The notes under the pieces are model-generated. The model saw only the letters and a program-made list of their open reading frames with translations, made no database searches and had not been told where the DNA came from. The position numbers were made by a program, and so were the translations under genes. From the NCBI GenBank assembly GCA_007376195.1, contig VMFT01000002.1:1273-65272 (forward strand): a DNA stretch of 64,000 nt, given 5' to 3'. This stretch comes from Parcubacteria group bacterium Gr01-1014_29. GTDB taxonomy: Bacteria; Patescibacteriota; Minisyncoccia; Ryanbacterales; 2-02-FULL-48-12. This document shows, piece by piece, positions 20,588 through 53,733 of this stretch (its first letter is position 1; each line of letters opens with the position of its first letter).

Positions 20588-20676
20588 TTAGGCGCTAGGC
20601 ACTAGGCGTTAGGAACTAAGAAAGAAAAATATCTTTCTAGCATCCAGAGCCTAAAGCCTAAAGCCTAAAGCCTAAT
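20588..20676. repeat. intergenic palindromic element, ctaggc/cctaaag arrayed-heptamer type
   Basis: Left arm ttaggcgctaggcactaggcgttagg, right arm cctaaagcctaaagcctaaagcctaa, around an AT-rich centre that has its own inner palindrome. Confidence 0.5.
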
Positions 20677-20678
20677 CT

Positions 20679-21716
20679 ATGCCTATTCAAAAAACAACAG
20701 AACGCGTGAACAGTAATAAACGCCGCATCATCAACGGAGAAGACGCGGATGTAATGCAGTTATACCCCATTAAGCACAAATTTGCGTGGGATGCGTATAT
20801 AATAGGGAACGCCAACCATTGGTTGCCAACCGAAGTCAACATGCAGCGCGATGTTGAGCAGTGGAAGTCTCCGTATGTTCTTACGGCGGACGAGCGTCTT
20901 GCGCTGGAAACCGTGCTTGGGTTTTTCACCACAGCCGATTCTCTCGCGGCAAACAACCTGGTGCTTGCCTCCTATAAGCACATCACTTCGCCCGAATGCC
21001 GGCTGTATTTATTGCGTCAGGCCTATGAAGAGGCAATCCATACGCATGCGTATCAATACATTGTAGAAAGCCTGGGTATGGATGAAGGGCGCCTGTTCAA
21101 CATGTACCGCGAGCATGATGCAATTTACAACAAAGACGCGTTTATCCTTACGTTTAACGAAGGCATTTTTGACCCTCACTTCAAAACCGGCACATTCGCG
21201 TCGGATCAGAAGTTTCTTGAGAACATGGTTGTGTTTTCAATTATTCTTGAAGGCATCTTTTTTTACAGCGCGTTTGCCGTTATGTTCGGGTTCCAGCGGC
21301 AAAATAAAATGGTTGGCGCGGCCGAGGAGATCCAATACATCATGCGCGATGAGTCTATGCACCTTAACTTCGGGATTAACGTTATAAATACTATAAAACA
21401 GGAGCAGCCGGAGTTGTGGACAAAGGATTTCCAGGAGCATGTCATGGAGCTTGTGAAAACAGCTGTTGTGCTTGAATCCACATTCGCGGCAAGCGTGTTT
21501 CCACACGGCATTTTCGGCATGAACGCCGATGGATTTCGTCAGTATATACAACATATTGCGGACCGCCGGCTGCAGCGGATAGGTCTTCTGGCAGCATATG
21601 GCAGTCAGAACCCATTTCCGTGGATGTCCGAAGCCATTGACCTTTCCAAGGAAAAAAATTTCTTTGAGACGCGCGTTATTGAATATCAGACCGGTGGCGC
21701 GTTAGAATGGGAATAG
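20679..21716 (+). CDS. nrdB: ribonucleoside-diphosphate reductase beta subunit
   Basis: Ferritin-like di-iron motifs (EAIHTHAY, ESMHLNF) and a C-terminal tail; directly follows nrdA. Confidence 0.75.
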   Translation: MPIQKTTERVNSNKRRIINGEDADVMQLYPIKHKFAWDAYIIGNANHWLPTEVNMQRDVEQWKSPYVLTADERLALETVLGFFTTADSLAANNLVLASYKHITSPECRLYLLRQAYEEAIHTHAYQYIVESLGMDEGRLFNMYREHDAIYNKDAFILTFNEGIFDPHFKTGTFASDQKFLENMVVFSIILEGIFFYSAFAVMFGFQRQNKMVGAAEEIQYIMRDESMHLNFGINVINTIKQEQPELWTKDFQEHVMELVKTAVVLESTFAASVFPHGIFGMNADGFRQYIQHIADRRLQRIGLLAAYGSQNPFPWMSEAIDLSKEKNFFETRVIEYQTGGALEWE

Positions 21717-21790
21717 GAATCAACGAATAGCGAATCAGAAACGAATTTACGAATGAGGTGAATTAAGCTAAAAATAAGTCCTATTCGTTG
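21717..21790. repeat. acgaat-type TIR element (cargo-less copy) related to the GxxExxY cassette ends
   Basis: atcaacgaatagcgaatcagaaacgaatttacgaatg ... cctattcgttgat. The ends resemble the 30-bp TIRs at 38552 and 38984. Confidence 0.4.
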
Positions 21791-21800
21791 ATAAAATATT

Positions 21801-23177
21801 ATGCCTACCCAACCTCACCTAAAGTATCTCACGCCGGAAAAATTTCTCAACACGATTCTTGAAGAAGCGGTGCGCGACCGCGCGTCTGATGTGCACATTG
21901 AGCCCTTGGTAGATGAATTGCGGGTGCGCTTTCGTATTGATGGATACTTGCAGGAGCGTTACCACCGGCCGCTTATGGAAATTGAGCCGTTAGTAACGCG
22001 CATCAAGGCTATTTCCGATCTTGATCTTGCAACGCGCCTTCCGCAGGACGGTCATTTTGAGTTTAGTGTAGAGCTTTCAGAAAGCGCCAAAAACAACACA
22101 CAAGAAGCTACGCAGCCCGTTGTGGAAATGCGCGAGCCGCCGTCGCGTCTGGCAGACGCGTTCTCGTCACTCTTTAGCACAGGCAAACAAGAAGACGAGT
22201 TGGAACAGATTGTTTCTTCCCAGCCGGATAAAAAAGATGTAACAGAAATCAAAGGGACGCAAAAAACGCGCCCCGCGGGCGTGTATGTGCTTAATGTGCG
22301 TGTGTCGGTGTTTCCTACGGTCTATGGTGAGGCGGTTGTGTTTCGGTTGCTTAACCGCAGCGACATGCTTATCTCGCTTTCAGGTCTTGGTATGGAAGCA
22401 AGTGACCTTGCCGCCATGCGTGATCTTATTACTCGTACGTATGGCATGGTGCTTACCACGGGACCTTCCGGCTCCGGCAAGACCACGACGCTGTACGCGA
22501 TTCTTCAAGAGCTTAAAAACAAAGAAAAAAACATTATCACGCTAGAAGATCCGGTCGAGTTTTATTTTGGTGATATCCGGCAAACCCAGATTCGGCCCGA
22601 ACAAGGGCTTACGTACGCGGTAGGCATGCGTTCTGTTTTGCGTCAGGACCCCGACGTTATTATGATAGGTGAAATCCGTGATCGTGAAACGGCTGAACAC
22701 GCCATGCGCGCATCGTTGGTGGGACGCATGGTTGGCTCCACGGTTCACTCTAATACAGCTGTCGGTACCATCGCGCGCTTGATCGATATGAATGTTGAGC
22801 GCAGTCTTATCGCGTTTGCGCTAAACGGCATCATCGACCAGCGGCTAGTGCGCAAGGTATGCGATGTATGCGCCGCATCGTATGCTCCTGATCCTGCAGC
22901 GCTCCGGCGTATTGGTATTGCAGATGGCATGAAGGGTACGTTTCGCAAGGGTAGCGGATGCGCGGAGTGCGGCAGTACGGGCTTTAACGGACGCACAGGT
23001 GTGTTTGGTATTCTTGTTATGGATGACGAGTTGCAGTCTTTAATTGTGGAGCGTTCTCCCATGCGGGCGTTGCAGGAGTACATGGAAAAATCTGACATGG
23101 CAACATTGCGCCAGCGCATAGCGGAAAAAGTGCTCGCGGGTGTTATCACCGCTGAAGAAGCCGCCCGTGCGGTGTGA
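21801..23177 (+). CDS. type II/IV secretion system ATPase (PilB/GspE family)
   Basis: Walker A GPSGSGKTTT, Asp box, His box, and tetracysteine CDVC...CAEC. Confidence 0.7.
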   Translation: MPTQPHLKYLTPEKFLNTILEEAVRDRASDVHIEPLVDELRVRFRIDGYLQERYHRPLMEIEPLVTRIKAISDLDLATRLPQDGHFEFSVELSESAKNNTQEATQPVVEMREPPSRLADAFSSLFSTGKQEDELEQIVSSQPDKKDVTEIKGTQKTRPAGVYVLNVRVSVFPTVYGEAVVFRLLNRSDMLISLSGLGMEASDLAAMRDLITRTYGMVLTTGPSGSGKTTTLYAILQELKNKEKNIITLEDPVEFYFGDIRQTQIRPEQGLTYAVGMRSVLRQDPDVIMIGEIRDRETAEHAMRASLVGRMVGSTVHSNTAVGTIARLIDMNVERSLIAFALNGIIDQRLVRKVCDVCAASYAPDPAALRRIGIADGMKGTFRKGSGCAECGSTGFNGRTGVFGILVMDDELQSLIVERSPMRALQEYMEKSDMATLRQRIAEKVLAGVITAEEAARAV

Positions 23178-23409
23178 TATACAGTAGAACGAAACTCAAA
23201 AGAAGCGTTTTCGGACGTGCTCTCAAAATTAAAAAATCTCCTCGTGCCGTTACAAGTTAATTTTTACTATGTCAGTCATCAAAAAATGCTTTCAAGTAAT
23301 GCTTTTGTAGCTATTTGGTGTAGTTGATGTAACTTGTAACGGTACTCGCATCAAAAATGCGGGAGATGACGTGATTGCGCGTTAGACAATGTTGTAGTAC
23401 ATTGAAAAC

Positions 23410-27628: not shown

Positions 27629-28852
27629 ATGACTCAAGACAAAAAATTTCCGGATGGGTTTTTGTGGGGGGCGGCGACGTCAGCTCATCAAGTTGAAGGA
27701 GACAACCGGAACGATTGGACGGAGTGGGAAAAGAAAAACGCCGAGCGGCTTTCAAAAACAAATGGCGCGAAATATCCTCCGGAAAATTATATTTCCGATC
27801 AGGCGTGTGATCACTACAGTCGCTACGAGGAAGATTTTGATATCGCAAAGTCTCTTGGCCACAATGCGCACCGGTTTTCCATTGAGTGGTCTCGCGTGGA
27901 GCCGGAAGAGGGAAAGTTTGATGAGAAAGAAATTGAACACTACCGCGACGTAATCCGCGCGTTACGCGAACGGGGCATGGAGCCGTTTGTAACATTGTGG
28001 CATTGGACAAACCCTATTTGGTTTGCTGAAGCGGGCGGTTGGGAGAATAAAAAAGCGACGGAATATTTTGTGCGCTATGTGGAAAAAGTTGTTGATGTTC
28101 TCGGCGACGTGAAATTTTGGATAACCATGAATGAGCAAGAGGCGTTTGCGCGCCATGGCTACTTTACGAAAGATCGCCCGCCCGCCACCGGCACTATTTT
28201 TACGGCATATCATGTGCTTAAAAAACTGGTTCATGCTCATGAGCAGGCGTATCAAGTTATAAAAAATATACGACCAAAAAGCCTTGTGGGGTTTTCGGAA
28301 AGCCGTGTTTTTTTTGAACCGTATAACAGGTTGCCCCACAATCTCCTTGCGACAAAACTTATTGCGTGGTGGAGGAACAACGCTTTTTTTGATCAGTTTG
28401 TCAAACATTCTGATTTTATTGGCCAGCAGTATTATTTTCACTCAAGGGTACGATTGAATCCGTTTGTGTCCCACTGGGGCTTTCAGTATAACGAAAATAA
28501 GAAAGTAAGCGACATGGGGTGGGAATTGTATCCGGAAGGACTATACCATGTGCTCACGGACTTAACAAAATATAAAAAACCTATTTATATCACAGAGAAC
28601 GGGCTTGCCGATGCACGGGATGAACACCGGGCGTGGTTTATCCGGGAGCATGTTCGTTGGATGAAAAAAGCAATGGATGAAGGGGCTGATGTGCGTGGAT
28701 ATTTTTATTGGTCACTATTGGACAATTTTGAGTGGGACAAAGGATTCTGGCCGCGATTCGGACTCGTGGAGGTGAATTACCAAACGCTCGAGCGAACAAT
28801 TCGCCCGAGCGCGTGGGAGTATAAGAAAATAATTATGGATCATGAAGCGTGA
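27629..28852 (+). CDS. glycoside hydrolase family 1 (beta-glucosidase-like)
   Basis: FLWGAATSAHQVEG, TMNEQ and ITENG catalytic motifs. The ORF track starts at 27557 with a hydrophobic N-terminal extension. Confidence 0.75.
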   Translation: MTQDKKFPDGFLWGAATSAHQVEGDNRNDWTEWEKKNAERLSKTNGAKYPPENYISDQACDHYSRYEEDFDIAKSLGHNAHRFSIEWSRVEPEEGKFDEKEIEHYRDVIRALRERGMEPFVTLWHWTNPIWFAEAGGWENKKATEYFVRYVEKVVDVLGDVKFWITMNEQEAFARHGYFTKDRPPATGTIFTAYHVLKKLVHAHEQAYQVIKNIRPKSLVGFSESRVFFEPYNRLPHNLLATKLIAWWRNNAFFDQFVKHSDFIGQQYYFHSRVRLNPFVSHWGFQYNENKKVSDMGWELYPEGLYHVLTDLTKYKKPIYITENGLADARDEHRAWFIREHVRWMKKAMDEGADVRGYFYWSLLDNFEWDKGFWPRFGLVEVNYQTLERTIRPSAWEYKKIIMDHEA

Positions 28853-29013
28853 ATCATGAAGCATAAGATATTAAATTCCTCACTTTTATGTTCCATGTTT
28901 CAAGTTTTATGTTATATGCTTTATGAACTGGTTTCTCATATCACTTCTTGCACAATGGGTTACCCCCTGCGAACTCATTTGCTTTTCAAGCGTACATATT
29001 TTATAATACATAC

Positions 29014-29226
29014 ATGACTGTGGTTGAGCAAAAAATATCATTACTGGAAAAAGAAGTACAACAACTTCGCTCGTTTATTATTGGTATCGCAGGAAAAGAT
29101 CCGGAAGGCGACTATAAGCCGGAGTTTGTGGATGATATTTTTAAAGCGCGCAGTGAGAAATCTGCCTATACATTTCATGGAAAATCTTCATTTCTTACCG
29201 AACTGCACCGCCGCAAGGCATCATGA
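29014..29226 (+). CDS. putative antitoxin (coiled-coil, 70 aa) of a RelE/ParE module
   Basis: Stop overlaps the toxin ATG (ATGA). Confidence 0.4.
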   Translation: MTVVEQKISLLEKEVQQLRSFIIGIAGKDPEGDYKPEFVDDIFKARSEKSAYTFHGKSSFLTELHRRKAS

Positions 29227-29856: not shown

Positions 29857-29862
29857 TTTTTT

Positions 29863-31737
29863 ATGAACTGGTTTCTTATATCACTTCTCGCACAGGTTGT
29901 TCTTGGCACCGCATCGGTGGTTGATAAGCTGTTCCTCAAAAAATCCTATCCAAATCCGGTAGGGTACACGTTTTGGATAGGAATATTAGGTTTAGTGTCG
30001 GTGTTTCTTTTGCCGTTCGGGTTTGAATGGGCAGAATCTGCAGTAGTGGTGCGTGCGTTGTGGGGAGGCGCTGTGTTTATGGCCGCACTTCTGCTTTTTT
30101 ATTGGGCATTGTATTACGGAGAAGCATCAGGGGCAGTGGTTGCCATTGGCGGTCTTTCGCCGGTAGCAACATTATTTTTTTCTTTTGTGCTCATGGGCGG
30201 TTCGCTTGCATCTTACGAAATTGCAAGCTTTTTTCTTTTGGTAATTGGCAGTTTTCTTCTGTCGTTTACCGCAGAGCGGACCGTGCGCCTGCGCGTGGCA
30301 GGGCTCGTTGCGGCAAGCGCCCTCTTATTTGGGTATTCCAATATTCTTGCCAAGCAAGTGTTTGACGCTACCTCATTTTTCACCGGATTTTTCTGGCTAA
30401 AAATCGGCGGAGTTATTGCGGTGTTCCTACTGTTTTTTTACGCGCCGTGGCGAAAGGCGATTCTCAATCCGGGAGAGAAAGACGAGTTTCATAATCGTCT
30501 TGGCTATTTTACCAACCGAGTGTACGCAGGCGTCGGTTCTATACTAATATATTACGCTATCGCATTAGGCGTGCCGCCGCTGGTGGATGCCATGCAGGCA
30601 GTACGGTTTTTATTTGTGTTTCTCGGCGGTTGGCTGGTGCTTCGTGAGACGTTTCGCGGAAAAATTCTTGCGCTAAAAATCGCCGCGTTTATAATAGTGT
30701 CTCTTGGGGTGTTGTTTCTCGGCGTGGGCACCTATCTCTCACACACAGCGCCAGATCCGAACCGGTCTATCGCGTGGGGAGTTACATTTTCAGAAAAATT
30801 CGCACGGGAATTTTTTGTGCCAAATGACAGTGCGCCCGGTCGGATGACCGGGTCGGATGAGTATTGGAAAAGTAACTATGACGCGATTCTTGATGATCTT
30901 GGCGTGCGGCATCTCCGATTGGTTGCTTACTGGGATCTTCTGGAGCCAACGGAAGGCGTATTTGATTTTTCAGGGCTTGACTATCAAATGCGCCGCGCGG
31001 AGAAAGTCGGGGCGGATGTTATCTTGGTGGTAGGAAAGAAAGTGCCGCGGTGGCCGGAGTGCCACACCCCGCACTGGGTGCGGGAATTTTCAATTTCCAA
31101 TTTTCAATTTCCAAACAAACAAGACGAAAAACTACTGGAGTTTGTTGAAGTAGTTGTAAAAAGATACAACGATTCTCCGGTACTTCGTTATTGGCAGGTG
31201 GAAAATGAACCATTTTTGCCGTTTGGAGAGGGAGCGTGCGCTCTTTCCGGGAAAGAGCTTTTGGAAAACGAAATAGAACTTGTGAAAAAACTAGACCCGG
31301 CGCATCCAGTTGTCATCACGGATTCAGGAGAAATTGGGGCGTGGGTGCGTGCCGCGAAACGCGGGGATGTATTTGGCACCACCATGTATAGAAGAGTACA
31401 CAACGACCGTCTTGGCAACTTCGAATATCCTATTGGTCCGTGGTTTTTCCGCGTGAAAGAAAAAATAGTCCGCTTTTTGCTTCAAGATTACGAGAAAAAA
31501 TTTATAGTGGTTGAACTTGGCATGGAGCCGTGGTTGCCCCAACAGCTCTATGAGACAACGCCGGAGGAACAAATGCAGGTTTTTGATTTTGAGTTTTTCA
31601 AAGATTCTGTGCGATTTGCCAAAGATACGGGGTTTGATGAGTACTATCTGTGGGGTGCTGAATGGTGGTATTGGTTAAAAACAAAACACAACGATCCCCG
31701 GTTTTGGGATGAGACGGGTGAGTTGTTTCCCAACTAA
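29863..31737 (+). CDS. fusion protein: N-terminal about 10-TM EamA/DMT-like membrane domain plus C-terminal TIM-barrel glycoside-hydrolase-like domain
   Basis: Hydrophobic N-terminal 300 aa; the C-terminal part has WQVENEP (GH5/GH42-like NEP catalytic motif). Confidence 0.5.
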   Translation: MNWFLISLLAQVVLGTASVVDKLFLKKSYPNPVGYTFWIGILGLVSVFLLPFGFEWAESAVVVRALWGGAVFMAALLLFYWALYYGEASGAVVAIGGLSPVATLFFSFVLMGGSLASYEIASFFLLVIGSFLLSFTAERTVRLRVAGLVAASALLFGYSNILAKQVFDATSFFTGFFWLKIGGVIAVFLLFFYAPWRKAILNPGEKDEFHNRLGYFTNRVYAGVGSILIYYAIALGVPPLVDAMQAVRFLFVFLGGWLVLRETFRGKILALKIAAFIIVSLGVLFLGVGTYLSHTAPDPNRSIAWGVTFSEKFAREFFVPNDSAPGRMTGSDEYWKSNYDAILDDLGVRHLRLVAYWDLLEPTEGVFDFSGLDYQMRRAEKVGADVILVVGKKVPRWPECHTPHWVREFSISNFQFPNKQDEKLLEFVEVVVKRYNDSPVLRYWQVENEPFLPFGEGACALSGKELLENEIELVKKLDPAHPVVITDSGEIGAWVRAAKRGDVFGTTMYRRVHNDRLGNFEYPIGPWFFRVKEKIVRFLLQDYEKKFIVVELGMEPWLPQQLYETTPEEQMQVFDFEFFKDSVRFAKDTGFDEYYLWGAEWWYWLKTKHNDPRFWDETGELFPN

Positions 31738-37581: not shown

Positions 37582-37992
37582 ATGCCAACAATTAACCAAT
37601 TAGTACGGAAACCGCGCAAGACCGCTCAAGCGAAAGCAAAAACGCCCGTGCTCCGGCGCGGCTTTAACACGGTTCACAATCGGCCTACGGAATACGCGTC
37701 GCCCTTTAAGCGCGGCGTATGTGTGGCGGTGCGTACGACAACGCCAAAAAAACCGAACTCGGCGTTACGTAAAATTGCCCGCGTACGGCTTACCAACGGC
37801 ATGGAAGTAACGGCATATATTCCGGGAGAGGGGCATAACTTACAGGAACACTCGGTGGTGATTATCCGCGGCGGGCGCGTGAAAGATCTTCCGGGTGTGC
37901 GGTACCACATTGTGCGCGGTATGCTGGACGCAAGCGGTGTGGAAGGTCGCAAACAGGGGCGGAGCAAGTATGGAGCAAAGAGACCTAAATAG
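37582..37992 (+). CDS. rpsL: 30S ribosomal protein S12
   Basis: [12 protein letters not shown]... with the conserved [10 protein letters not shown]. Confidence 0.9.
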
Positions 37993-38067
37993 GCTCTAGA
38001 GGGTTAGGCGCTAGGCTTTAGGAAAAGATATAGAAATGTCTTCTAGAGCCTAAGGCCTAGTGCCTAA
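37991..38067. repeat. intergenic palindromic element (ctaggc type)
   Basis: ...gggttaggcgctaggctttagg ... cctaaggcctagtgcctaa, with nested ctctagag arms. Confidence 0.5.
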
Positions 38068-38079
38068 TTTTCTAAACAA

Positions 38080-38551: not shown

Positions 38552-39013
38552 AAATCAACGAATAACGAATTAAGTACGAATAAACGAATGAAGGAGTTGA
38601 AAAGAAGTGATTTGGTATATCCCGAATTAAGTTATCGGATTATAGGTTGTGCGTTTGAAGTTTATAACATTTTAGGTCAGGGTCGCCAGGAAAAGCATTA
38701 CCAGAAAGCGTTGGTGGAAGAATTCAAAAACATAGGGCTTGCAATAATTGAACAGGTTTACTATCCTATTTCATTCAAAAATAAAAATATCGGAAAAGAC
38801 TTTCTTGATTTCTTGGTTAATAGTCAGGTAGTTGTAGAAATCAAAAAAGGTGATAGATACTCCAAACAACACATTGATCAAGTATTAGAATATCTTAAAG
38901 TTAGCGACAAACAACTTGCTATCTTAATTAATTTTGGATCGCAGGGTGTCCACTTCAAAAGAATTATAAATTTTAATTCGTAAATTCGTACTTAATTCGT
39001 TATTCGTTGATTT
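38552..39013 (+). mobile_element. cassette with perfect 30-bp terminal inverted repeats (aaatcaacgaataacgaattaagtacgaat) carrying a GxxExxY gene, inserted exactly between rpsG and fusA
   Basis: Left TIR 38552-38581 and right TIR 38984-39013 are exact reverse complements; the fusA ATG is at 39014. Confidence 0.5.
38588..38983 (+). CDS. GxxExxY-family protein (PD-(D/E)XK nuclease superfamily)
   Basis: YPELSYRIIGCAFEVYNILGQG contains the G-x-x-E-x-x-Y motif; AT-rich gene. Confidence 0.55.
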   Translation: MKELKRSDLVYPELSYRIIGCAFEVYNILGQGRQEKHYQKALVEEFKNIGLAIIEQVYYPISFKNKNIGKDFLDFLVNSQVVVEIKKGDRYSKQHIDQVLEYLKVSDKQLAILINFGSQGVHFKRIINFNS

Positions 39014-42958: not shown

Positions 42959-43035
42959 TCATGAAGCTTAAAACATGAAACTTGGAACATTTGTTTTATT
43001 TTTTATGCTTCACGTTTCATGCTTCAAGCTTCAGG
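42959..43035. repeat. intergenic palindromic element (catgaagc/gtttcatg type)
   Basis: catgaagcttaaaacatgaaacttggaacat ... atgcttcacgtttcatgcttcaagcttcag. Confidence 0.45.
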
Positions 43036-43116
43036 TTAACCCCTTGACGATTTTCCTCTCGATATGGTAAAGTATAAAAACGTTAATTATCATTATAACT
43101 CTAATTTTTACATACT

Positions 43117-45285: not shown

Positions 45286-45290
45286 GATGA

Positions 45291-45360
45291 TAGGCACTAG
45301 GCTCTAGGCATTAGGGAAAAAATATATGTTCCCAGCTAGTGCCTAAGGCCTAATGCCTAA
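45291..45360. repeat. intergenic palindromic element (ctaggc type)
   Basis: taggcactaggctctaggcattagg ... cctaaggcctaatgcctaa. Confidence 0.5.
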
Positions 45361-45366
45361 AAGATC

Positions 45367-46035: not shown

Positions 46036-46040
46036 TTTGT

Positions 46041-46394: not shown

Positions 46395-46405
46395 GTTATA
46401 ATTGT

Positions 46406-47230
46406 ATGCGTCAATACAAACCAACAACACCAGGAAGGCGCGGTATGTCTGTAATGTCGCGGCCGTTTCTTTCTTCAGGGCGCCCCCAAAAGAGTCTGGT
46501 GGCGGGGAGAAAACGCGCTGTCGGCCGCAATAACGTCGGCCGCATAACAACGCGACACAAAGGAGGCGGCCACAAGCGTTTGTATCGATTTGTGGATTTT
46601 GGGCAGGAGAAGCGCGATGTTCCCGGGCGTGTGCTTTCATGCGAGTACGATCCGAACAGGACTTCATATATTGCGTTGGTCGCCTATCGCGACGGCGACA
46701 AGCGGTATATACTGCTTGGACAGGAGATGGCAGACGGAGCTGAAATTATCACATCAGAAAAAGCTCCGGTACAACCGGGCAACAGGCTGCCGCTCTCAAG
46801 GATTCCTGTCGGGACATTTGTATATAATGTCGAGGTGCATCCGGGCGGCGGGGGAAAACTTGTTCGCGCTGCCGGTGTGGGCGCCGAAGTTCTTGCGCAC
46901 GATACCCCGTATGTCTTGCTGCGTCTGCCGTCGAAAGAAATCCGCAAGATACAAGAACACTGCTGGGCTTCTGTGGGGCGCCTCAGCGGTGAGGAGCATC
47001 GCTTTGTAACAATAGGCAAAGCGGGTCGGTCGCGTTGGATGGGTAAACGGCCCACCGTGCGAGGGTCGGCAATGAATCCCGTTGATCATCCTTATGGCGG
47101 CGGTGAAGGCCGTGCGCTTCGCGGGACGCGGCGTCCAAAAAATCTTTGGGGGAAAGGAGTGCGGGGAGTAAAGACACGCGGGAAGAAGAAATATTCAAAT
47201 AAACTTATTATAGAGCGGAGGAAAAAATAA
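46406..47230 (+). CDS. rplB: 50S ribosomal protein L2
   Basis: L2 family motifs; order. Confidence 0.9.
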   Translation: MRQYKPTTPGRRGMSVMSRPFLSSGRPQKSLVAGRKRAVGRNNVGRITTRHKGGGHKRLYRFVDFGQEKRDVPGRVLSCEYDPNRTSYIALVAYRDGDKRYILLGQEMADGAEIITSEKAPVQPGNRLPLSRIPVGTFVYNVEVHPGGGGKLVRAAGVGAEVLAHDTPYVLLRLPSKEIRKIQEHCWASVGRLSGEEHRFVTIGKAGRSRWMGKRPTVRGSAMNPVDHPYGGGEGRALRGTRRPKNLWGKGVRGVKTRGKKKYSNKLIIERRKK

Positions 47231-47236
47231 CATAGT

Positions 47237-47569
47237 ATGAGTCGCAGTTCAAAAAAAGGTCCCTATGTCAATGAGCGTTTGCTGCAGAAACTTTCAAAAG
47301 AAAAGCCGGGAACACGGGCAGTTATTAAGACGTGGGCGCGTAGTTCCATGATAAGCCCCGAGATGGTCGGTTACACTATTGGCGTGCATAATGGCAAAGA
47401 TCATATCGCAGTTACTATTAACGAAGATATGATTGGTCACCGGTTGGGCGAATTCAGCCCTACCAGAAAATTTATTCGCCACGGCGGAAAAATGCAAAAA
47501 GAGCAGGAGCAAAAAGCAAAAACGGCAGCCGCTGCCGCTCCCGCGCCAAGCAGTAAGAAAACAGGATGA
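47237..47569 (+). CDS. rpsS: 30S ribosomal protein S19 (with C-terminal extension)
   Basis: [11 protein letters not shown]...GHRLGEF. Confidence 0.85.
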
Positions 47570-47904
47570 AAACAGTGAAAGCACAACTGAAGTATGCGCG
47601 CATATCGCCGCAGAAAGCGCGGCGTGTTGCCGATGTTATTCGCGGTATGTCGGTGCCTGCGGCACATGTGCAATTGGCGATGCTTGGGCAGCGGCCGGTG
47701 TTGGTACTGCGAAAACTTCTTGCTTCAGCCGTAGCGAATGCCAAACAATTAGGGCTTGAGACGAGCCGTCTTATCGTGCAATCGCTTACGGTTAACGAGG
47801 GACCCATGTTTAAACGTTCTATGCCGCGGGCACATGGCCGGGCAACGCCAATTCGGAAACGCACGAGTCATATTGCTTTGGTGGTAGGAGAAAAGGAATT
47901 ATGA
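47566..47904 (+). CDS. rplV: 50S ribosomal protein L22
   Basis: Order and family similarity; overlaps rpsS by 4 nt. Confidence 0.85.
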
Positions 47905-48617
47905 CACATGTAGCTCACCCCTACGGGGTACGATTGGGTATATTAAAAGATTGGCGGTCGCGTTGGTTTGACGCGCGTGGATATCGCCAGTTGCTGAAGA
48001 TTGATACACTTTTACGCGTTTACCTATGGCGCGAACTCGACGGTATTTTGGTTGACAGCATTGATATCGAACGTTCTGGGCGCGTGTTATCCGTTATAAT
48101 TAAAACAAGTCAACCCGGCTTGCTCGTCGGGCGCGGGGGTGAGGGGGCGGAGAAATTGAAAGAGAAAATCCGTTCCTATGTGGCAAAAATTGAGCGCCAG
48201 CCTGTTACGGGCGGCACATGTACCCCGGAGGGCGGTGTGGAAGGTCGTGGCCGCGTGGAAATCCGCCTTACCATTGAAGAAGTTCGAATGCCGGAAACGC
48301 ATGCGAATATTCTTGCGCAGATGGTGGTGCAGGATCTTGAGCGGCGGCTCCCGTTCCGGCGTGTTTTGAAGGGCGCTATAGAAAAAGCAAACACGAATAA
48401 AGAAGTCCAAGGCGTAAAGATAGCATTGAAAGGCAGGCTTGACGGAGCGGAGATGGGGCGGTATGAATGGCTGCGAAAAGGACGTATTCCATTACAAACG
48501 CTCCGGGCGGATGTAGATTACGCACAGCAGGAAGCACAGTTGCCATACGGCACCATTGGCATAAAGGTCTGGATTTATAAAGGGGAGCGCTTTGAGAATG
48601 AAAAACCAAGTGGGTAG
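47901..48617 (+). CDS. rpsC: 30S ribosomal protein S3
   Basis: KH domain; order. Confidence 0.9.
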   Translation: MTHVAHPYGVRLGILKDWRSRWFDARGYRQLLKIDTLLRVYLWRELDGILVDSIDIERSGRVLSVIIKTSQPGLLVGRGGEGAEKLKEKIRSYVAKIERQPVTGGTCTPEGGVEGRGRVEIRLTIEEVRMPETHANILAQMVVQDLERRLPFRRVLKGAIEKANTNKEVQGVKIALKGRLDGAEMGRYEWLRKGRIPLQTLRADVDYAQQEAQLPYGTIGIKVWIYKGERFENEKPSG

Positions 48618-48707
48618 TCCCTCGCTTTGCTCGGTGATGTCGAAGATACTGAACGCAGTGAACGTACTCAAAAATTATAGTCGTTATCACTCCTTAATTT
48701 TTGGCAT

Positions 48708-49121
48708 ATGCTAGTTCCCAAAAAAGTAAAACATAGAAAATGGCAGCGCGGACGGAGTCGTGGTCTTGAAACACGCGGCACAACCCTTGCTTTTGGAGCA
48801 TTCGGCCTCAAGGCAATGGAAGCGCGATGGATTGATTCCCGACAAATTGAGGCAGCTCGGCGCGCCATGACACGCTATGTTCAGCGCGGCGGCAAGATAT
48901 GGATCCGGATATTTCCCGACAAGCCCATTACCAAGCGGCCACCGGAGACAACGCTCGGAGGCGGGAAGGGCGCGCCGGATAAATATGTGTTTCCGGTTCG
49001 GCCGGGGCGTGTGCTTTTCGAGATGGATGGCATCGCGGAGAATGTTGCGCGCGAGGCGTTGCGTAGAGCAGGCGCGAAGCTCCCCCTCAAAGTAAAAATT
49101 ATTAGCAGGTTGAGTACATAA
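48708..49121 (+). CDS. rplP: 50S ribosomal protein L16
   Basis: [16 protein letters not shown]... Confidence 0.9.
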
Positions 49122-49124
49122 TAT

Positions 49125-49319
49125 ATGAAACCGCGTGATGCCAGGGAAAAAAGTATAGCGGAGCTCAAGACTGCTCTCTACGACGTTCAGAAGCAATTGG
49201 GCGATCTGTATTTTGATCTTGCCGCAGGCCGTATAAAAAACGTAAAGGGGGCGGCAACTCTTCGCCGCGAGGCCGCGCGCATAAAAACCATACTACATGA
49301 TGCAAACAACTCATCCTAA
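49125..49319 (+). CDS. rpmC: 50S ribosomal protein L29
   Basis: Order; small helical protein. Confidence 0.8.
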
Positions 49320-49542
49320 AAGATTACAAGGAACGATAGTATCCGACCGCATGCAGAAAACAGCGGTTGTGTTGGTTGTGCGGTTGGAAAAATATCCGAA
49401 GTACAAGAAATATCACAAAGTCAGCAAGAAATTCAAAGCGCACGATGAACAAAACGAATACAAAACTGGCGATAAGGTCGTGATTCAAGAAACACGCCCC
49501 CTGTCAAAAGACAAGAGATGGAAAGTTATTAGTAAGGTATAA
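49297..49542 (+). CDS. rpsQ: 30S ribosomal protein S17
   Basis: ..[14 protein letters not shown].. OB fold; overlaps the rpmC end. Confidence 0.85.
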
Positions 49543-49628
49543 TTAGGCTTTAGGCGCTAGGCATTAGAACACTGAATGAAAACTATGTGTCTAGTCCTAG
49601 AGCCTAAGGACTACTATCTAGCGCCTAC
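49543..49628. repeat. intergenic palindromic element (ctaggc type)
   Basis: ttaggctttaggcgctaggcattag ... ctagtcctagagcctaagg ... ctagcgcctac. Confidence 0.5.
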
Positions 49629-49633
49629 ATTAT

Positions 49634-49999
49634 ATGATTCAACCTCAAACACAATTGAAAGTAGCCGACAACTCGGGAGCAAAACTTATCCAGGTTTTTA
49701 AGATTTTGGGCGGGAGCCGCCGCCGGTACGCGCGCATCGGGGATTTGGTTGTGGCGTCGGTTAAGATAGCTGAACCGAAAAAGGCGGTAAAAAAGAAAGA
49801 TATTGTCCGGGTGGTTATCGTACGGCAAGCCCAGCCCTATCGACGCGCCGATGGGTCTTATATTCGTTTCGATGACAACGCAGGGGTTATCGTGGACGGA
49901 AAAGAACCAAAGGGAGGACGTATTTTCGGCCCCATTCCACGGGAACTTCGGGAGCGCGGATTTACAAAAATAATTTCATTGGCCGAAGAAGTGGTGTAA
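49634..49999 (+). CDS. rplN: 50S ribosomal protein L14
   Basis: [17 protein letters not shown]... Confidence 0.9.
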
Positions 50000-50007
50000 A
50001 TAGCAAA

Positions 50008-50085
50008 CTAGGCATTAGGCTCTAGGCACTAGGAAAAGAAATACAAAAGCATTTTTTCCTAAAGCCTAACGCCTAGAGCCTAGAG
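50008..50085. repeat. intergenic palindromic element (ctaggc type)
   Basis: ctaggcattaggctctaggcactagg ... cctaaagcctaacgcctagagcctagag. Confidence 0.5.
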
Positions 50086-50091
50086 TATTCT

Positions 50092-50397
50092 ATGCGCATA
50101 AAAAAAGGTGACAACGTGAAAGTAATAAGCGGAAAGGACCGCGGTAAGACGGGTACGGTTGTTCGGGCTGTTCCGGATCAGGATCGTATTGTGGTAGATG
50201 GTTTGAATATACGAAAACGCCATGTCCGCGCGAAGCGTGCGGGGCAGAAAGGAGAAGTCGTACAATTTTCCGCTCCCCTGCATGTTTCAAATATACAGCT
50301 GGTCTGTACAAAATGCGGAAAAACAACCCGCGTGGGTTATCGGGTGGACGGAGCCGTTAAAAGCAGGGTGTGTAAAAAATGTGGAGCGGATATATAA
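50092..50397 (+). CDS. rplX: 50S ribosomal protein L24 with C-terminal CxxC...CxxC zinc ribbon
   Basis: KOW motif at the N-terminus; CTKCGK...CKKCG at the C-terminus. Confidence 0.85.
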   Translation: MRIKKGDNVKVISGKDRGKTGTVVRAVPDQDRIVVDGLNIRKRHVRAKRAGQKGEVVQFSAPLHVSNIQLVCTKCGKTTRVGYRVDGAVKSRVCKKCGADI

Positions 50398-50398
50398 T

Positions 50399-50947
50399 AT
50401 GGCGCCATCAGCACTACAAAATAAATACCAGAAAGACGCACTACCCGCCATGCAGACCCGTTTTGGGCATGCAAATGTAATGGCTGTTCCTCGGTTACAA
50501 AAGACGGTCGTGAATATTGGGATTGGGCGTATTGCGAGAGAAAAGGGAAGCGATGAGGAGGTGGTAAAGTTTATAACGGGTATTACGGGACAAAAGCCTA
50601 CACCGTGTCTTGCGCGTAAATCCATTGCGGCGTTCAAAACACGCGCGGGACAAGTGATTGGTTATAAGGCTACATTACGCGGCAGGCGGATGTTCGACTT
50701 TTTGGAACGTTTTATTTCTGCGGCCATTCCGCGCATGAGAGATTTTCGGGGTATTGACCCAAAAGCGGTTGATGCCGGAGGAAACTTGACGGTTGGTGTG
50801 CGAGAACATATTATATTTCCAGAGACTATCGGTGAGGATATGCGCATGATTTTTGGGCTTGAAGTGACGACAACTACCAACGCAAAGACGCGTGAGGAAG
50901 CAGTCGAGCTATTTAGATTATTAGGATTCCCATTAAAAAGGCACTAG
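50399..50947 (+). CDS. rplE: 50S ribosomal protein L5
   Basis: Start taken at MAPSALQNKYQ within ORF 50222..50947. Confidence 0.85.
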   Translation: MAPSALQNKYQKDALPAMQTRFGHANVMAVPRLQKTVVNIGIGRIAREKGSDEEVVKFITGITGQKPTPCLARKSIAAFKTRAGQVIGYKATLRGRRMFDFLERFISAAIPRMRDFRGIDPKAVDAGGNLTVGVREHIIFPETIGEDMRMIFGLEVTTTTNAKTREEAVELFRLLGFPLKRH

Positions 50948-51012
50948 GGCACTAGGCTCTAGGCCTTAGGATTCTAAGTCCTAGAGCCTAGTGCCTAGGT
51001 TCCTAGCGCCTA
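50942..51012. repeat. intergenic palindromic element (ctaggc type), overlapping the rplE stop
   Basis: cactagggcactaggctctaggccttagg ... cctagagcctagtgcctagg ... cctagcgcctag. Confidence 0.5.
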
Positions 51013-51017
51013 GTATT

Positions 51018-51203
51018 ATGGCAAAAACATCAGTAGTAGCAAGGTCGAAGAAAAAACCAAAGTTTGTAACACGGCTTGTGCGGCGCTGTTTTCGCTGTGG
51101 CCGCAAGCGCGGGTATATGCGTGCTTTTGATCTTTGCCGCATCTGTTTTCGCGAACTTGCGCTCCGCGGCGAGTTGCCAGGTATTAAAAAATCATCATGG
51201 TAA
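51018..51203 (+). CDS. rpsN: 30S ribosomal protein S14, type Z (zinc-binding)
   Basis: [20 protein letters not shown]. Confidence 0.85.
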
Positions 51204-51209
51204 GTAGTA

Positions 51210-51292
51210 TCAACGAATAACGAATCTGTTACGAATAAACGAATAATAACCGCTGAATTCCATTCGTACATTCGTACAAGATTCGTTATTCG
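51210..51292. repeat. acgaat-type TIR element (cargo-less copy); ends nearly identical to the TIRs of the GxxExxY cassette
   Basis: atcaacgaataacgaatctgttacgaataaacgaat ... attcgtacattcgtacaagattcgttattcgatg. Confidence 0.5.
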
Positions 51293-51304
51293 ATGATTGT
51301 TTTT

Positions 51305-51700
51305 ATGACAGATTCTATTTCAGACACACTAACAAGAATTCGGAATGCGCAAATGGTTCAGAAGCGCAGTGTTGTGGTGCCTCATTCCGACATTGTGCAC
51401 GAGGTGCTGCGTGTATTGAAGGAAACAGGTTTTGTGCGGGAAGCTGTAAAGCGAGGACGCCGGAACCGGTGCGTTCTTGATGTGTCGCTTCTTTATGATG
51501 CCAGCGGTAGCGGGCATATGCAGGGCGCACGGCGTGTCAGCAAACAAAGTAAGCGTGTGTATGCGCGCGCGTGTGATTTGAGACCCTCCAAGAAAAGCGC
51601 CAAAGGTATCTTTATTGTTTCCACATCGAGCGGCATCATGTCTTCTTCTGATGCGCGCAAATCAAAAGTCGGCGGCGAAGTTTTATGCGAAGTATGGTAA
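51305..51700 (+). CDS. rpsH: 30S ribosomal protein S8
   Basis: MTDSISDTLTRIRNAQ; the ORF track begins four codons earlier at 51293. Confidence 0.85.
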   Translation: MTDSISDTLTRIRNAQMVQKRSVVVPHSDIVHEVLRVLKETGFVREAVKRGRRNRCVLDVSLLYDASGSGHMQGARRVSKQSKRVYARACDLRPSKKSAKGIFIVSTSSGIMSSSDARKSKVGGEVLCEVW

Positions 51701-51703
51701 TAA

Positions 51704-51786
51704 AACGTGAAGCCTGAAACTTGAAACGTAAAACCCAAGAAAATAATTTTTAAGGTTTAAGGTTTCAGGATTTAAGTTTCAGAATT
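51704..51786. repeat. intergenic palindromic element (gaaac/gtttc type)
   Basis: gaagcctgaaacttgaaacgtaaaacc ... aggtttaaggtttcaggatttaagtttcag. Confidence 0.45.
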
Positions 51787-51789
51787 TAT

Positions 51790-52338
51790 ATGGGTCGTCT
51801 ATCAGCAAAACCAATTCATGTTCCCGAAGGAGTGTCCGCCCGTTTGGAAAACGGTGTTTTCAGCGTGAAAGGGCCAAAGGGAGAGTTGTCGCGCGTATTG
51901 CCCCGCGATGTGGTGTTGGTCGTAGCGGAAAATGGGCGGGAGATTTCTGTCGTCGCATCAAAACGTGTCAAAACAGCAAACCTTCTTGGCACCGCATATG
52001 TCTCTGCCAGAAATATGGTTCAGGGTGTTTGGGAGGGGTTTTCGAAGATTCTAGAAATGGAAGGGGTGGGTTATCGCGCATCTAAGGAAGGCAACGATAT
52101 TGTTTTTTCGCTTGGTTTTTCTCACCCCGTCCGCTATACGCCGCCGGACAATGTTCAGCTTGCCGTTGAAAAAAATACTATACGGGTAGTTGGTATTGAC
52201 AAAGAGCTTGTTGGAAAGGTTGCTGCTGATATTCGCGCCTTAAGGCCGCCCGAGCCCTACAAAGGCAAGGGTATTCGGTACCAAGGGGAGCGGATTCAGC
52301 GTAAGCAAGGCAAGAAAGCTGGAGTGGGGGCAACGTAA
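51790..52338 (+). CDS. rplF: 50S ribosomal protein L6
   Basis: Order and family similarity. Confidence 0.85.
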
Positions 52339-52342
52339 AAAT

Positions 52343-52711
52343 ATGACACATACACTAAACAATAGAACACGAAGAACGCGGCGGCACAAACGGGTGCGAG
52401 CGAAGGTTCAGGGGACAGCGAAAGTGCCGCGTCTTTCGGTATTCCGTTCAAACCGGCATGTTTACGCGCAGATTATTGACGATGTTGCCGGGCGGACATT
52501 GGCGGGAGTGCATAGCGCTTCTTTCGTTTCTTTAAAAAAGGACTCAAAAGAAACAAAAACAGAACATGCGAAAAAAATTGGTACCCAGATTGCCAAACGT
52601 GCCAAGGAGCTTCGTATTGTGCGCGTTGTGTTTGATCGGGGCGGGTATCGGTATCAAGGGCGTGTACGCTCGCTGGCGGACGCTGCGCGAGAAGGTGGTC
52701 TTGAATTTTAA
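52343..52711 (+). CDS. rplR: 50S ribosomal protein L18
   Basis: Order and family similarity. Confidence 0.85.
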
Positions 52712-52755
52712 TGGTTTATCAGGCACCATAGGTCAATCATATAAAAATACATTAT

Positions 52756-53223
52756 ATGCGCAGACGAATGCAAAAACAAAAACGGGAACGCCCGGAATTC
52801 GATCAAAAGCTGATTGATCTTCGGCGTGTTGCGCGCGTGGTTTCCGGCGGGCGCCGATTTAGTTTTCGCGCATCGCTTGTTATAGGCAATCGCAAGGGGG
52901 ATGTCGGGTTTGCGTCGGCGAAGGGGGCGGACACTGCTATGGCAATTGAAAAAGCGTTTCGCCAGGCGCGTAAGTACATGATCAGCGTTCCCTTGACGTC
53001 GGAAGGTACCATTAGGCATGAGGTGTCCGCAAAACATTCCGGTTCCCGGATTTTATTGAAACCTGCGCGCAAAGGAAGAGGAATTATGGCAGGCGGCCCC
53101 GTGCGTATTGTATGCGATATGGCGGGCATCAGGGATATTACCGGCAAGATTGTTTCTCGCTCTACGAACAAGCTGAACAACGCGTTGGCGACAATGAAAG
53201 CATTACAGAAATTAAAAATGTAA
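52756..53223 (+). CDS. rpsE: 30S ribosomal protein S5
   Basis: ..RVARVVSGGRRFSFRASLVIGN.. Confidence 0.85.
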   Translation: MRRRMQKQKRERPEFDQKLIDLRRVARVVSGGRRFSFRASLVIGNRKGDVGFASAKGADTAMAIEKAFRQARKYMISVPLTSEGTIRHEVSAKHSGSRILLKPARKGRGIMAGGPVRIVCDMAGIRDITGKIVSRSTNKLNNALATMKALQKLKM

Positions 53224-53231
53224 TTTTTTTC

Positions 53232-53669
53232 ATGCAACTGCATACCATATCAGCGCCAAAACATACATCTGCCAAACGCATTGGCCGCGGCGGCAAGCGC
53301 GGCACGTTTTCGGGTCGCGGCACCAAAGGCCAAAAAGCGCGGGCTGGTCGCCGTATTCGTCCGCAATTGCGCGATATATTGAAAAAAATCCCAAAGAAAC
53401 GCGGGTATCGTTTTACGTCATTTCGCGCGCGACCAATCGGTGTTAACCTTTCCATCCTCAATGAAAAGTTTGAGTCGGGCGGTGTTGTTTCTCCTCAGAC
53501 GCTTGTCGAAGGGGGCATGGTATCCCGGAAGGGTGGTGCGTATCCTTCCGTAAAGATTCTTGGCACAGGAATTATTTCAAAAAAGCTTACCATTGAAGGA
53601 TGTCAGATTTCCGCATCAGCAAAAGAGAAGATCGAAAAAGCGGGAGGAAAACTAGTAGCTAGGCGTTAG
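53232..53669 (+). CDS. rplO: 50S ribosomal protein L15 (directly after S5; no L30 gene in between)
   Basis: MQLHTISAPKHTSAKRIGRGGKRGTFSGRG; start taken inside ORF 53112..53669. Confidence 0.85.
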   Translation: MQLHTISAPKHTSAKRIGRGGKRGTFSGRGTKGQKARAGRRIRPQLRDILKKIPKKRGYRFTSFRARPIGVNLSILNEKFESGGVVSPQTLVEGGMVSRKGGAYPSVKILGTGIISKKLTIEGCQISASAKEKIEKAGGKLVARR

Positions 53670-53733
53670 GCACTAGGCGCTAGAGGAACAAAAAAATATT
53701 CTAGAGCCCTAAAGCCTAAAGCCTAAAGCCTAA
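53652..53733. repeat. intergenic palindromic element (ctaggc/cctaaag type), overlapping the rplO stop
   Basis: ctagtagctaggcgttaggcactaggcgctagagg ... ctagagccctaaagcctaaagcctaaagcctaaa. Confidence 0.5.

Follow-up and report, generated by a model that had tools for sequence, protein, structure and literature searches.

The 23S rRNA of Coxiella burnetii carries an intervening sequence (IVS) in which a 28-bp stem of terminal inverted repeats (TIRs) encloses an open reading frame (ORF) of family PF05635; it is excised by RNase III, and its tandem heptameric repeats (GACAGAT) differ in number from strain to strain (PMC4990558). Insertions in the rRNA of the candidate phyla radiation (CPR) also encode the 23S_rRNA_IVP protein of PF05635 (PMC11270868). 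The present analysis concerns a 64 kb stretch of DNA, referred to as the window, from an uncultured Patescibacteria/CPR bacterium represented by a Parcubacteria metagenome-assembled genome (MAG), in which short hairpins with arms of tandem heptamers lie at operon junctions, most of them between ribosomal-protein genes. We consider it somewhat better than an even chance (about 0.55) that these hairpins are ORF-less members of a group of IVS-like or REPIN-like palindromic cassettes whose units evolve in concert. The cassette layout is two inverted arms of 3-4 tandem units of ~7 nt around a loop. Cassettes without an ORF measure 55-165 nt overall and those with one small gene in the loop about 440-590 nt. 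Cargo and arms are paired, GxxExxY genes occurring with ACGAAT-type arms and PF05635 (Avd-like) genes with AATTTTC-type or TAGGC-type arms.

The Correia elements of Neisseria, or NEMIS, are TIR-bounded intergenic inserts with long stems that are co-transcribed and processed by RNase III; in Correia elements the TIRs are unique and 26 bp long, and the duplicated target is TA. The short tandemly repeated repetitive (STRR) units CCCCAGT, TTGGTCA and CAACAGT belong to heterocystous cyanobacteria, which also have small dispersed repeats. Heptamer arrays are held by the hup/hyp spacers of Nostoc (PMC2408588), and the TAACTGA repeats of Beggiatoaceae are intergenic tandem heptanucleotide arrays, often located just upstream of start codons (PMC4679880). 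In the REPIN-RAYT systems (REP doublets forming hairpins, with REP-associated tyrosine transposases) the cognate gene lies between inverted repeat copies and gene-less doublets are dispersed (PMC3116915). A link of heptamer-armed hairpins with GxxExxY or PF05635 genes was not found described in the searchable literature.

Gene-bearing cassettes and their two cargo families

The gene-bearing form in the window consists of three parts.

38553..38593, + strand: left arm of the ACGAAT cassette (ATCAACGAATAACGAAT-TAAGT-ACGAATAAACGAAT), the last unit of which holds the ATG of the gene (38588)
38588..38983, + strand: GxxExxY / PDDEXK_3 nuclease gene of 131 aa, in the cassette loop between rpsG and fusA
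38975..39013, + strand: right arm of the ACGAAT cassette, which holds the stop of the gene and ends one base 5' of the fusA ATG (39014)

The cassette (38553-39013) fits exactly between rpsG and fusA, its start and stop codons are located in the innermost arm units, and its flanking inverted repeat scores 33.5. Its arms are near-twins of those of the ORF-less hairpin at 51209-51297; they are ~380 nt apart in the cassette versus 17 nt in the hairpin. The loop ORF matched the profiles PF13366 (E = 2.4e-31) and TIGR04256 (E = 2.4e-32, 111.7 bits against a cut-off of 35), and G29, E32, Y35, D71, E81 and K83 were invariant in an alignment of 26 sequences. The AlphaFold2 (AF2) model, with a predicted local distance difference test (pLDDT) score of 92, has a minimal PD-(D/E)XK fold, for which the nearest structures were Cas4, lambda exonuclease, the tRNA-splicing endonuclease EndA and Hjc, a Holliday-junction resolvase (root-mean-square deviation 2.6 A). 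No solved GxxExxY structure was found by sequence search. The protein is a confidently predicted minimal PD-(D/E)XK nuclease which looks functional, and the modelled fold would be compatible with a hairpin, a cruciform or a structured-RNA substrate, without deciding which. The literature on 'GxxExxY' yielded incidental mentions only, with PF13366 listed as 'unknown'.

Relatives of this protein (47-67% aa identity) are encoded at 80 metagenomic loci, of which 74 were testable for their flanks. The 130 nt upstream were aligned to the reverse complement of the 130 nt downstream, and 330 shifted intervals served as controls. The median score of the relatives was 20.25 against 8.0 for the controls (control maximum 12.5), and 61 of the 74 testable loci (82%) scored above all 330 controls. 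Their arms follow a conserved 4 x ACGAAT sequence, ATCAACGAATAACGAAT-n4-5-TACGAATAAACGAAT and its complement; as the proteins are only 47-67% identical to that of the window and the arm consensus is still recognisable, the arms keep their consensus despite protein divergence. The spacing of ACGAAT terminus pairs is bimodal, with ORF-less pairs at 54-163 nt and gene-bearing pairs at 437-592 nt, and a single contig often carries both. In a set of 80 ribosomal-protein loci the only other GxxExxY homologue was located between secY and adk (L053) and is also flanked by an inverted repeat, and ~30 other inserts of more than 300 nt in the ribosomal-protein operons of those 80 loci were without one. 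A scan of viral contigs for the ACGAAT arm returned 0 matches. The arrangement tests on gene-bearing cassettes, including those described below, cover ~90 loci in all.

Scanning for heptamer arrays paired across long loops located a second cargo in L086 (1388-1854), where the loop between AATTTYC arms encodes a PF05635 '23S rRNA intervening-sequence protein' (E = 6.8e-15). Four loci that were picked by protein similarity alone (L100, L284, L294 and L295) all had inverted AATTTTC-type arrays (4/4). Most of these CPR cassettes, at about 1460-1940 or 4270-4720 of their contigs, are found just upstream of pilin genes, following pilC or the prepilin peptidase gene or placed between T4SS pilin genes. 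Ten population copies of one PF05635 cassette have equal numbers of arm units and differ in their arms by a single substitution (in L292). For the size of the PF05635 family the best 8,000 candidates were scored, and 8,000 of these 8,000 were within the E-value threshold. One further long-loop pair (L123, 1307-1798) was discarded as a gene-bearing cassette for lack of a convincing ORF; its 416-nt loop (1339-1753) has GGTTTAA/TTAAACC heptamer arms, is internally repetitive and gives a repeated 'HFSLP'-type translation in one frame.

The same cargo family was reached through the TAGGC motif, which located a high-GC contig (L278) with a PF05635 gene (E = 1.7e-33) between GGCTGTAGGCCATAGGCCGTAGGC and GCCTATGGCCTAGGGCCTATCGCCTA. 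Five homologues of this gene from Planctomycetes, Zixibacteria and relatives were picked irrespective of their flanks, and three of the five (L301, L303 and L299) have clear inverted TAGGC-like heptamer arms; L298 has weak ones, and L296/L297 shows the right-hand array only, with ~60-85 nt of upstream sequence before the contig end. A solo TAGGC arm lies between S19 and L22 in a Paceibacterota genome. The viral catalogue gave at least 120 matches to TAGGC, with at least 13 true hairpins in high-GC contigs; by our estimate most of the single viral matches are about as frequent as chance would give with 15 specified bases. Several GGCAGTA/TACTGCC (TAGGCAG) hairpins per contig were observed in the IMG/VR contigs L166, L169, L189, L196 and L215 (65-69% GC), where some arms reach 10 units. 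The TAGGC family, which was the main family of an earlier reading made from the letters of the window (the sequence-only reading), is on this comparison one with putative gene-bearing counterparts, located outside this window.

PF05635 shares its four-helix-bundle superfamily with the accessory Avd proteins of diversity-generating retroelements (DGRs). At the end of the window (62669-63775, - strand) there is a gene for a reverse transcriptase (RVT_1, E = 3.5e-24), which adjoins a perfect (TCCA)8.5 microsatellite (62576-62609) and may be of the DGR, group II intron, retron or Abi type; no template/variable repeat pair for it was found within the window.

Heptamer-armed hairpins of the window

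The str, S10 and spc ribosomal-protein operons occupy 37.5-56.4 kb of the window and are followed by secY, adk and map; the genes nrdA and nrdB occupy 17.7-21.7 kb. Ribosomal protein L14 is only 75% identical to that of the nearest GTDB species representative, one protein of the window has 99% identity to a protein of Parcubacteria group bacterium Gr01-1014_29, and a public ENA contig (L001) is 99.9% identical to the window across 12.6 kb. A scan of the window at Rfam gathering thresholds detected three tRNAs only and 0 rRNA. All data from this genome come from the window, and the families were counted within it. Besides the cassette given above, the following elements and arrays were catalogued.

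20587..20678, + strand: TAGGC hairpin between nrdA (stop 20584-20586) and nrdB (ATG 20679), -37.2 kcal/mol; left arm 4 x NTAGGCN, right arm 4 x GCCTAAA
21720..21793, + strand: degenerate ACGAAT element between nrdB and a T2SSE ATPase gene; left arm complete (ATCAACGAATAGCGAAT..ACGAAT..ACGAAT), right arm reduced to its outermost unit ATTCGTTGAT
28835..28925, + strand: TGAARC hairpin (CATGAAG / CGTGAAT units) overlapping the GH1 stop codon
29831..29855, + strand: solo TAGGC right arm with GCCTAA units, directly 5' of the ATG at 29863
31083..31115, + strand: solo AATTTYC heptamer array within the ORF 29863-31737; its unit is the arm unit of the four-helix-bundle cassettes at other CPR loci
37986..38068, + strand: TAGGC hairpin between rpsL (S12, stop in the first unit) and rpsG (S7), -42.2 kcal/mol, z -8.7
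42959..43037, + strand: TGAARC hairpin 3' of a 103-aa hypothetical gene and 5' of a promoter-like site and tuf, -23.8 kcal/mol
45289..45362, + strand: TAGGC hairpin between rplC (L3) and rplD (L4), -36.4 kcal/mol, z -10.8
49542..49629, + strand: TAGGC hairpin with a partly degenerate right arm, between rpsQ (S17) and rplN (L14)
50007..50086, + strand: TAGGC hairpin between rplN (L14) and rplX (L24), -37.1 kcal/mol
50939..51014, + strand: TAGGC hairpin between rplE (L5, stop 50945-50947 in the left arm) and rpsN (S14, ATG 51017), -48.9 kcal/mol
51209..51297, + strand: ORF-less ACGAAT hairpin of 89 nt between S14 and S8, loop 17 nt, -34.5 kcal/mol
51703..51788, + strand: TGAARC hairpin (NTGAAAC units) between S8 and L6, -26.1 kcal/mol
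53652..53734, + strand: TAGGC hairpin between rplO (L15, stop 53667-53669 in the left arm) and secY (ATG 53735), a close copy of the element at 20587

In our own scan, period-7 arrays of at least four units numbered 10 in the window against 0.0 in block shuffles, and period 7 was the sole enriched tandem period, the other periods within 4-12 being at chance. Pairs of an array and a reverse-complement array no more than 70 nt apart numbered 7 against 0 in 30 shuffles. The sequence-only reading had described palindromic elements with arms of tandem arrays, and Tandem Repeats Finder reported period-7 arrays at every position that it listed; the 7 strict hairpins, with none in the shuffles, bear the description out. 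Enumeration of tandem plus inverted repeats, which had been proposed as a check, gave within the window 22 period-7 arrays at a looser threshold against a shuffle mean of 1.8 (maximum 4), and 13 elements on looser inspection, spanning the junctions from stop codon to start codon. The members listed in that reading were real but incomplete, as the elements at 21720-21793, 28835-28925 and 51209-51297 and the gene-bearing cassette at 38553-39013 had been overlooked, and the supposed palindromic variant at 61713 is a direct array (61708-61744) with no complementary arm.

Three sequence families could be distinguished, TAGGC (7 hairpins and the solo arm; unit TAGGCNN), ACGAAT (3 elements; unit ACGAATN) and TGAARC (3 elements; unit TGAARCN). 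The unit is therefore a heptamer rather than the '6-8-mers' reported before, with a spacing of 7/8/11 nt in the ACGAAT family. The statement that the elements share architecture but not sequence was too strong, as the families share sequence including the loop: the seven TAGGC copies are alignable, E20588 and E53652 align over their full length, loop included, and the three ACGAAT copies have the common terminus ATCAACGAAT...ATTCGTTGAT. An orientation bias based on the order 'TAGGC left, GCCTA right' was rejected, as the reverse complement of a hairpin keeps the same order; the A-rich loop is the only orientation cue, and a weak one.

All 11 short elements fold as single long stems (-23.7 to -48.9 kcal/mol) of 21-30 bp, with 1x1 or 2x2 mismatches at 7-nt intervals. 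Fold z-scores of the spacers were about -2 to -10.8 (-4.7 to -10.8 for the clearest seven), and the element spacers rank among the most structured of the window. The occupied junctions include nrdA/nrdB, S12/S7, L3/L4, S17/L14, L14/L24, L5/S14, S14/S8, S8/L6 and L15/secY, so that the placement between ribosomal-protein genes and the flanking genes were as previously stated. The upstream stop codon lies 0-8 nt ahead of the stem or within it (S12, L5, L15 and GH1), in agreement with the earlier observation that the stop codons of rplE and rplO are inside elements, where they occupy the left arms as does that of S12. The downstream start codon is usually 0-8 nt past the stem, the exception being S17/L14, where it is ~27 nt past the main stem. 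The remark that CTAG is rare overall yet abundant in the elements also holds: the window has far fewer CTAG sites (80) than its base composition predicts (245), and 33 of the 80, counted from the site list, fall in elements that cover less than 2% of the window.

The hairpins account for unusually long spacers in otherwise compact operons. They also give rise to spurious ORFs, which is a concern for CPR annotation. The public annotation (L001, 9525-9815) has a 96-aa ORF at 50981-51271 (- strand) that spans two hairpins and the S14 gene, and S14 is left uncalled there; this antisense call is an annotation artefact caused by the elements. Motifs resembling Shine-Dalgarno sequences are almost lacking upstream of the gene starts of the window (for example at the starts 44338, 46041 and 49634), and signals of another kind must guide the start of translation in this organism.

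Intrinsic terminators were considered for the elements and rejected. A T-tract does not follow the stem in any of them, and none is among 45 terminator-like sites in 37000-56900, where the real terminator candidates are 42245-42273 and 56564-56605. The suggestion of terminator sites in the sequence-only reading is for this reason not upheld, and the elements lie inside essential operons.

Orthologous junctions and arm evolution

In the closest sequenced relative (L002) the spacers at S17/L14, L14/L24, L5/S14, S14/S8, S8/L6 and L15/secY measure -19 to 10 nt, versus 43-92 nt at these six junctions in the window. A gene-bearing ACGAAT form is present in L085 at S14/S8, the junction of the ORF-less twin in the window, and further GxxExxY cassettes were found at L14/L24, adk/map and secY/adk. 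At S7/fusA a GxxExxY cassette is present in the window and at eight other loci, where the identity of the cassette protein to that of the window falls roughly in step with S7 identity. For 68 GxxExxY loci no ribosomal-protein or elongation-factor gene was detected in the fetched flanks. Several relatives have an ORF-less ACGAAT hairpin at S12/S7 versus the TAGGC hairpin of the window, an ACGAAT cassette is nested inside the loop of a TAGCTNN hairpin in L144, and other CPR genomes have heptamer-armed hairpins of unrelated units at S17/L14 and L14/L24. Insertion into operon junctions is supported by these comparisons of sequence.

Variant units cluster within elements far beyond chance, the statistic being 209 where permutations averaged 102 and did not exceed 153. 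ACAAAT replaces ACGAAT in 8/8 units of L154 and in 6/7 units of L127, in both arms. The proteins nearest to that of L127 (74-76% identity) keep ACGAAT arms, so that its units switched independently and in concert. These data support concerted evolution among the units of one element, and homogenisation of units within and between arms, with families drifting apart, provides a mechanism for the 'same architecture, different sequence' of the earlier reading. The arrays are stable over short times. The window and L001 are separated by 0 indels, and all 14 of the 14 differences are in the Fic gene, where they are confined to 130 nt at the end of L001 (41477-41605 versus L001 21-149); strain variation could account for this cluster, as could a chimera with a paralogue made in assembly. 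The term 'slippage-prone' used for these hairpins accordingly has indirect support from the concerted evolution of units and none from unit-number polymorphism, which was not seen between near-identical assemblies.

Several other features of the window were recorded. Between fusA and tuf (41108-43116) there are an HTH-Fic gene (41288-42220), the strong terminator (42245-42273) and the 103-aa hypothetical gene, and 5' of the Fic gene the palindrome AACTTTATAAAGTT occurs twice (41231-41244 and 41259-41272); these paired palindromes look like an operator. A second, unrelated palindromic family consists of CCCCCTT/AAGGGGG modules at 17526-17601 and 29530-29620, in which AAATCCCCCTTnnTCCCCCTTTTnCAAAGGGGGA pairs with CTCCTCCCTTTGnAAAAGGGAGGTTnGGAGGGATTT and the module order is opposite in the two copies. 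Perfect palindromes of 20 bp (56564-56605, AATTCCTAAAAATATGGACG; terminator-like, downstream of map) and 15 bp (57083-57122, TAGTGTACATCTTTT) are not built of heptamers. The first ~37 nt of gene 29863 (ATGAACTGGTTTCTyATATCACTTCTyGCACA) are duplicated, at 28924-28960, directly 3' of the hairpin at 28835..28925, and at 29863-29899. The duplicates enclose a RelE/YoeB-type toxin gene with a small ORF upstream, the CCCCCTT repeat, a hairpin resembling a terminator and the solo GCCTAA arm, and the region 28924-29899 looks like an insertion that copied its target and carried its own hairpin arm.

Origin of the elements and comparison with known systems

Under the cassette reading, the cassettes would have moved into operons packed so tightly that their spacers are very short, and could persist there as the self-complementary insert folds away, leaving the upstream stop and the downstream start side by side. 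We infer both RNase III processing and mobility in this scheme. In polycistronic RNA the stem of 21-30 bp might be cut by RNase III, as in rRNA IVSs, and such a cut would separate the cistrons or free the mRNA of the loop gene; this RNA-level function is argued by analogy, because the Coxiella IVS combines a stem, a PF05635 ORF, heptamers and excision by RNase III. Spread and homogenisation may occur at the DNA level via a hairpin or cruciform, possibly with the encoded nuclease. The sequence-only reading had offered, besides a processing or terminator hairpin, degenerate TIR pairs of non-autonomous elements, and of its two alternatives the latter is the better supported, because the ACGAAT hairpins are ORF-less versions of the nuclease cassette, TAGGC and AATTTTC arms flank PF05635 genes elsewhere, and the closest relative is without the insertions. 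They are not classical MITEs (miniature transposable elements bounded by inverted repeats), since a transposase and a consistent target-site duplication are absent.

A number of observations weigh against the cassette reading. Flanking inverted repeats are not universal, as can be seen from five distant plasmid-borne GxxExxY homologues outside the CPR: CACAGAG units form a clear inverted repeat around that of Bernardetia, that of Treponema has a borderline one of 11 bp, the gene of Fusobacteria bacterium ZRK30 (L307, 540-1040) is flanked by a 22-nt direct repeat CAGATTTAATCCGTGTACCTAT, and two of the five have no flanking repeat. The S7/fusA cassette looks like a case of long vertical residence and not of recent mobility, because its protein co-diverges with S7. 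No consistent target-site duplication was found in the element flanks, the sole exception being a possible AAGAT at 45291 which may be chance, and neither a transposase nor a RAYT was found in the window or beside any of the ~90 cassettes examined. Comparison with related genomes, which had been put forward as a way to judge mobility, did return occupied, ORF-less and empty states of the same junctions, but between near-identical assemblies there was no gain, loss or unit-number change. The PF05635 gene is absent from the window, where the loop ORF is of the GxxExxY family, and the link of TAGGC arms with PF05635 comes from distant phyla and could be convergence. Cognate TAGGC arms pair only slightly better than non-cognate ones (-35.0 versus -33.0 kcal/mol, permutation p = 0.09), indicating weak co-variation, and there is no excess of G-U over A-C mismatches (18:14 for the window and 59:63 for 58 cassettes). 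Selection on pairing in the sense RNA thus has no clear support, and the mismatch counts give no RNA-specific signature for the intercistronic processing sites suggested in the sequence-only reading. A palindrome at the level of DNA, with conserved core units, therefore fits no worse than an RNA helix under selection.

It is possible, although we think it unlikely, that the elements are host-selected intercistronic RNA structures which grow and turn over in place by replication slippage, without mobility, and which act in mRNA stabilisation, as processing sites or in translational coupling without Shine-Dalgarno sequences, the gene-bearing forms being secondary loop insertions. The different hairpin families at S12/S7, the hairpins of unrelated units at S17/L14 and L14/L24 in other CPR genomes, the nested cassette of L144, the homogenisation of units within elements independently of protein phylogeny, the near lack of Shine-Dalgarno motifs and the missing target-site duplications speak for such turnover in place. 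Against it, loop and terminal sequence are common to copies at unrelated loci, and ACGAAT arms are conserved across genomes whose cassette proteins are only ~50% identical; a compensatory or G-U signature of RNA-level selection and unit-number polymorphism were not seen, and the closest relative copes with spacers of ~0-10 nt at the same junctions. The heptamers might instead be iteron-like duplex DNA sites for a sequence-specific protein (the cassette product or a host factor), in which case the inverted layout would reflect proteins assembling symmetrically, the capacity to form a hairpin being incidental. We regard this as improbable, despite the conservation of the cores (TAGGC, ACGAAT) and not of pairing at the variable positions, the lack of an RNA-strand asymmetry and the separate arm unit of each gene family (ACGAAT for GxxExxY; AATTTTC or TAGGC-like for PF05635). 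The units of L127 have switched to ACAAAT in concert although the protein is 74-76% identical to ACGAAT-armed relatives, the elements are restricted to intra-operon spacers, exactly from stop to start codon, and the window is without an identifiable DNA-binding partner for its 8 TAGGC copies.

Least probable of all, and in our view very doubtful, is that these are MITE- or REPIN-type repeats tied to an insertion sequence or RAYT with matching termini. Their arms consist of tandem arrays and not of unique TIRs or palindromes with a GTAG/CGTC head, and the enclosed genes encode a minimal nuclease or a four-helix bundle; the absence of a transposase or RAYT and of a consistent target-site duplication, given above, points the same way, even if the repeats are multi-copy and intergenic with terminal inverted repeats at their ends, the orthologous sites in a relative are empty, and a single gene flanked by inverted repeats together with dispersed gene-less doublets does resemble RAYT-REPIN (PMC3116915).

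A wider form of the cassette reading can be put forward tentatively, and with less assurance than the cassette reading itself. Heptamer-armed palindromes may be one pan-bacterial selfish or semi-domesticated class with a GxxExxY nuclease or an Avd-like four-helix bundle as cargo, of which the rRNA IVSs would be the best-known sites and which would also colonise ribosomal-protein, pilin and nrdAB junctions; concerted evolution templated by the hairpin would homogenise the arms, and the cargo proteins would maintain or spread the copies that lack an ORF. To our knowledge PF05635 and PF13366 (GxxExxY) are very large, widespread families of small proteins without established function, and we know of no settled account of the origin and spread of rRNA IVSs, open since about 1990. 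If true, the wider reading would give a function and mobility context to both families and an origin to the rRNA IVSs. The system is testable, as it offers defined arm sequences as nuclease substrates, occupied, ORF-less and empty orthologous junctions, and predicted cleavage of the RNase III type in ribosomal-protein operons.

TIGR-Tas arrays were considered as relatives of these elements and rejected, their architecture being unrelated. The elements resemble STRR and Beggiatoaceae repeats in being tandem heptanucleotide arrays in intergenic DNA, but those are mainly direct arrays of other phyla, whereas the arms in the window are paired in inverted orientation and linked to GxxExxY or PF05635 genes, and the units (TAGGCNN, ACGAATN and TGAARCN) belong to a Patescibacteria/Parcubacteria MAG and not to a cyanobacterium. 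They differ from Correia elements and NEMIS in showing no target duplication and no unique TIR, and from MITEs in that the product of the gene-bearing forms is a nuclease or a four-helix bundle in place of a transposase, with no consistent target-site duplication. With REPIN-RAYT and with the repetitive extragenic palindromes (REP) and bacterial interspersed mosaic elements (BIME) of proteobacteria they share short palindromic intergenic repeats, many of them inside operons; unlike these they have tandem-heptamer arms, no GTAG/CGTC head and, in each clade, several copies of the cargo, whose product is a PD-(D/E)XK nuclease or a four-helix bundle and not a Y1 HUH transposase; no Y1 transposase is present in the window. 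The 23S rRNA IVSs of Coxiella burnetii, Leptospira and Salmonella have the same inverted-repeat stem of ~20-30 bp. Their loop may hold a small PF05635 ORF, of which hairpins of this architecture provide examples at L086, L100, L284, L294, L295, L278, L299, L301 and L303, the loop ORF of the window being GxxExxY. The window elements differ from these in lying between protein-coding cistrons and not in rRNA helices, in having the whole arm made up of a heptamer array, and in having a second cargo, the GxxExxY nuclease, and numerous ORF-less copies.

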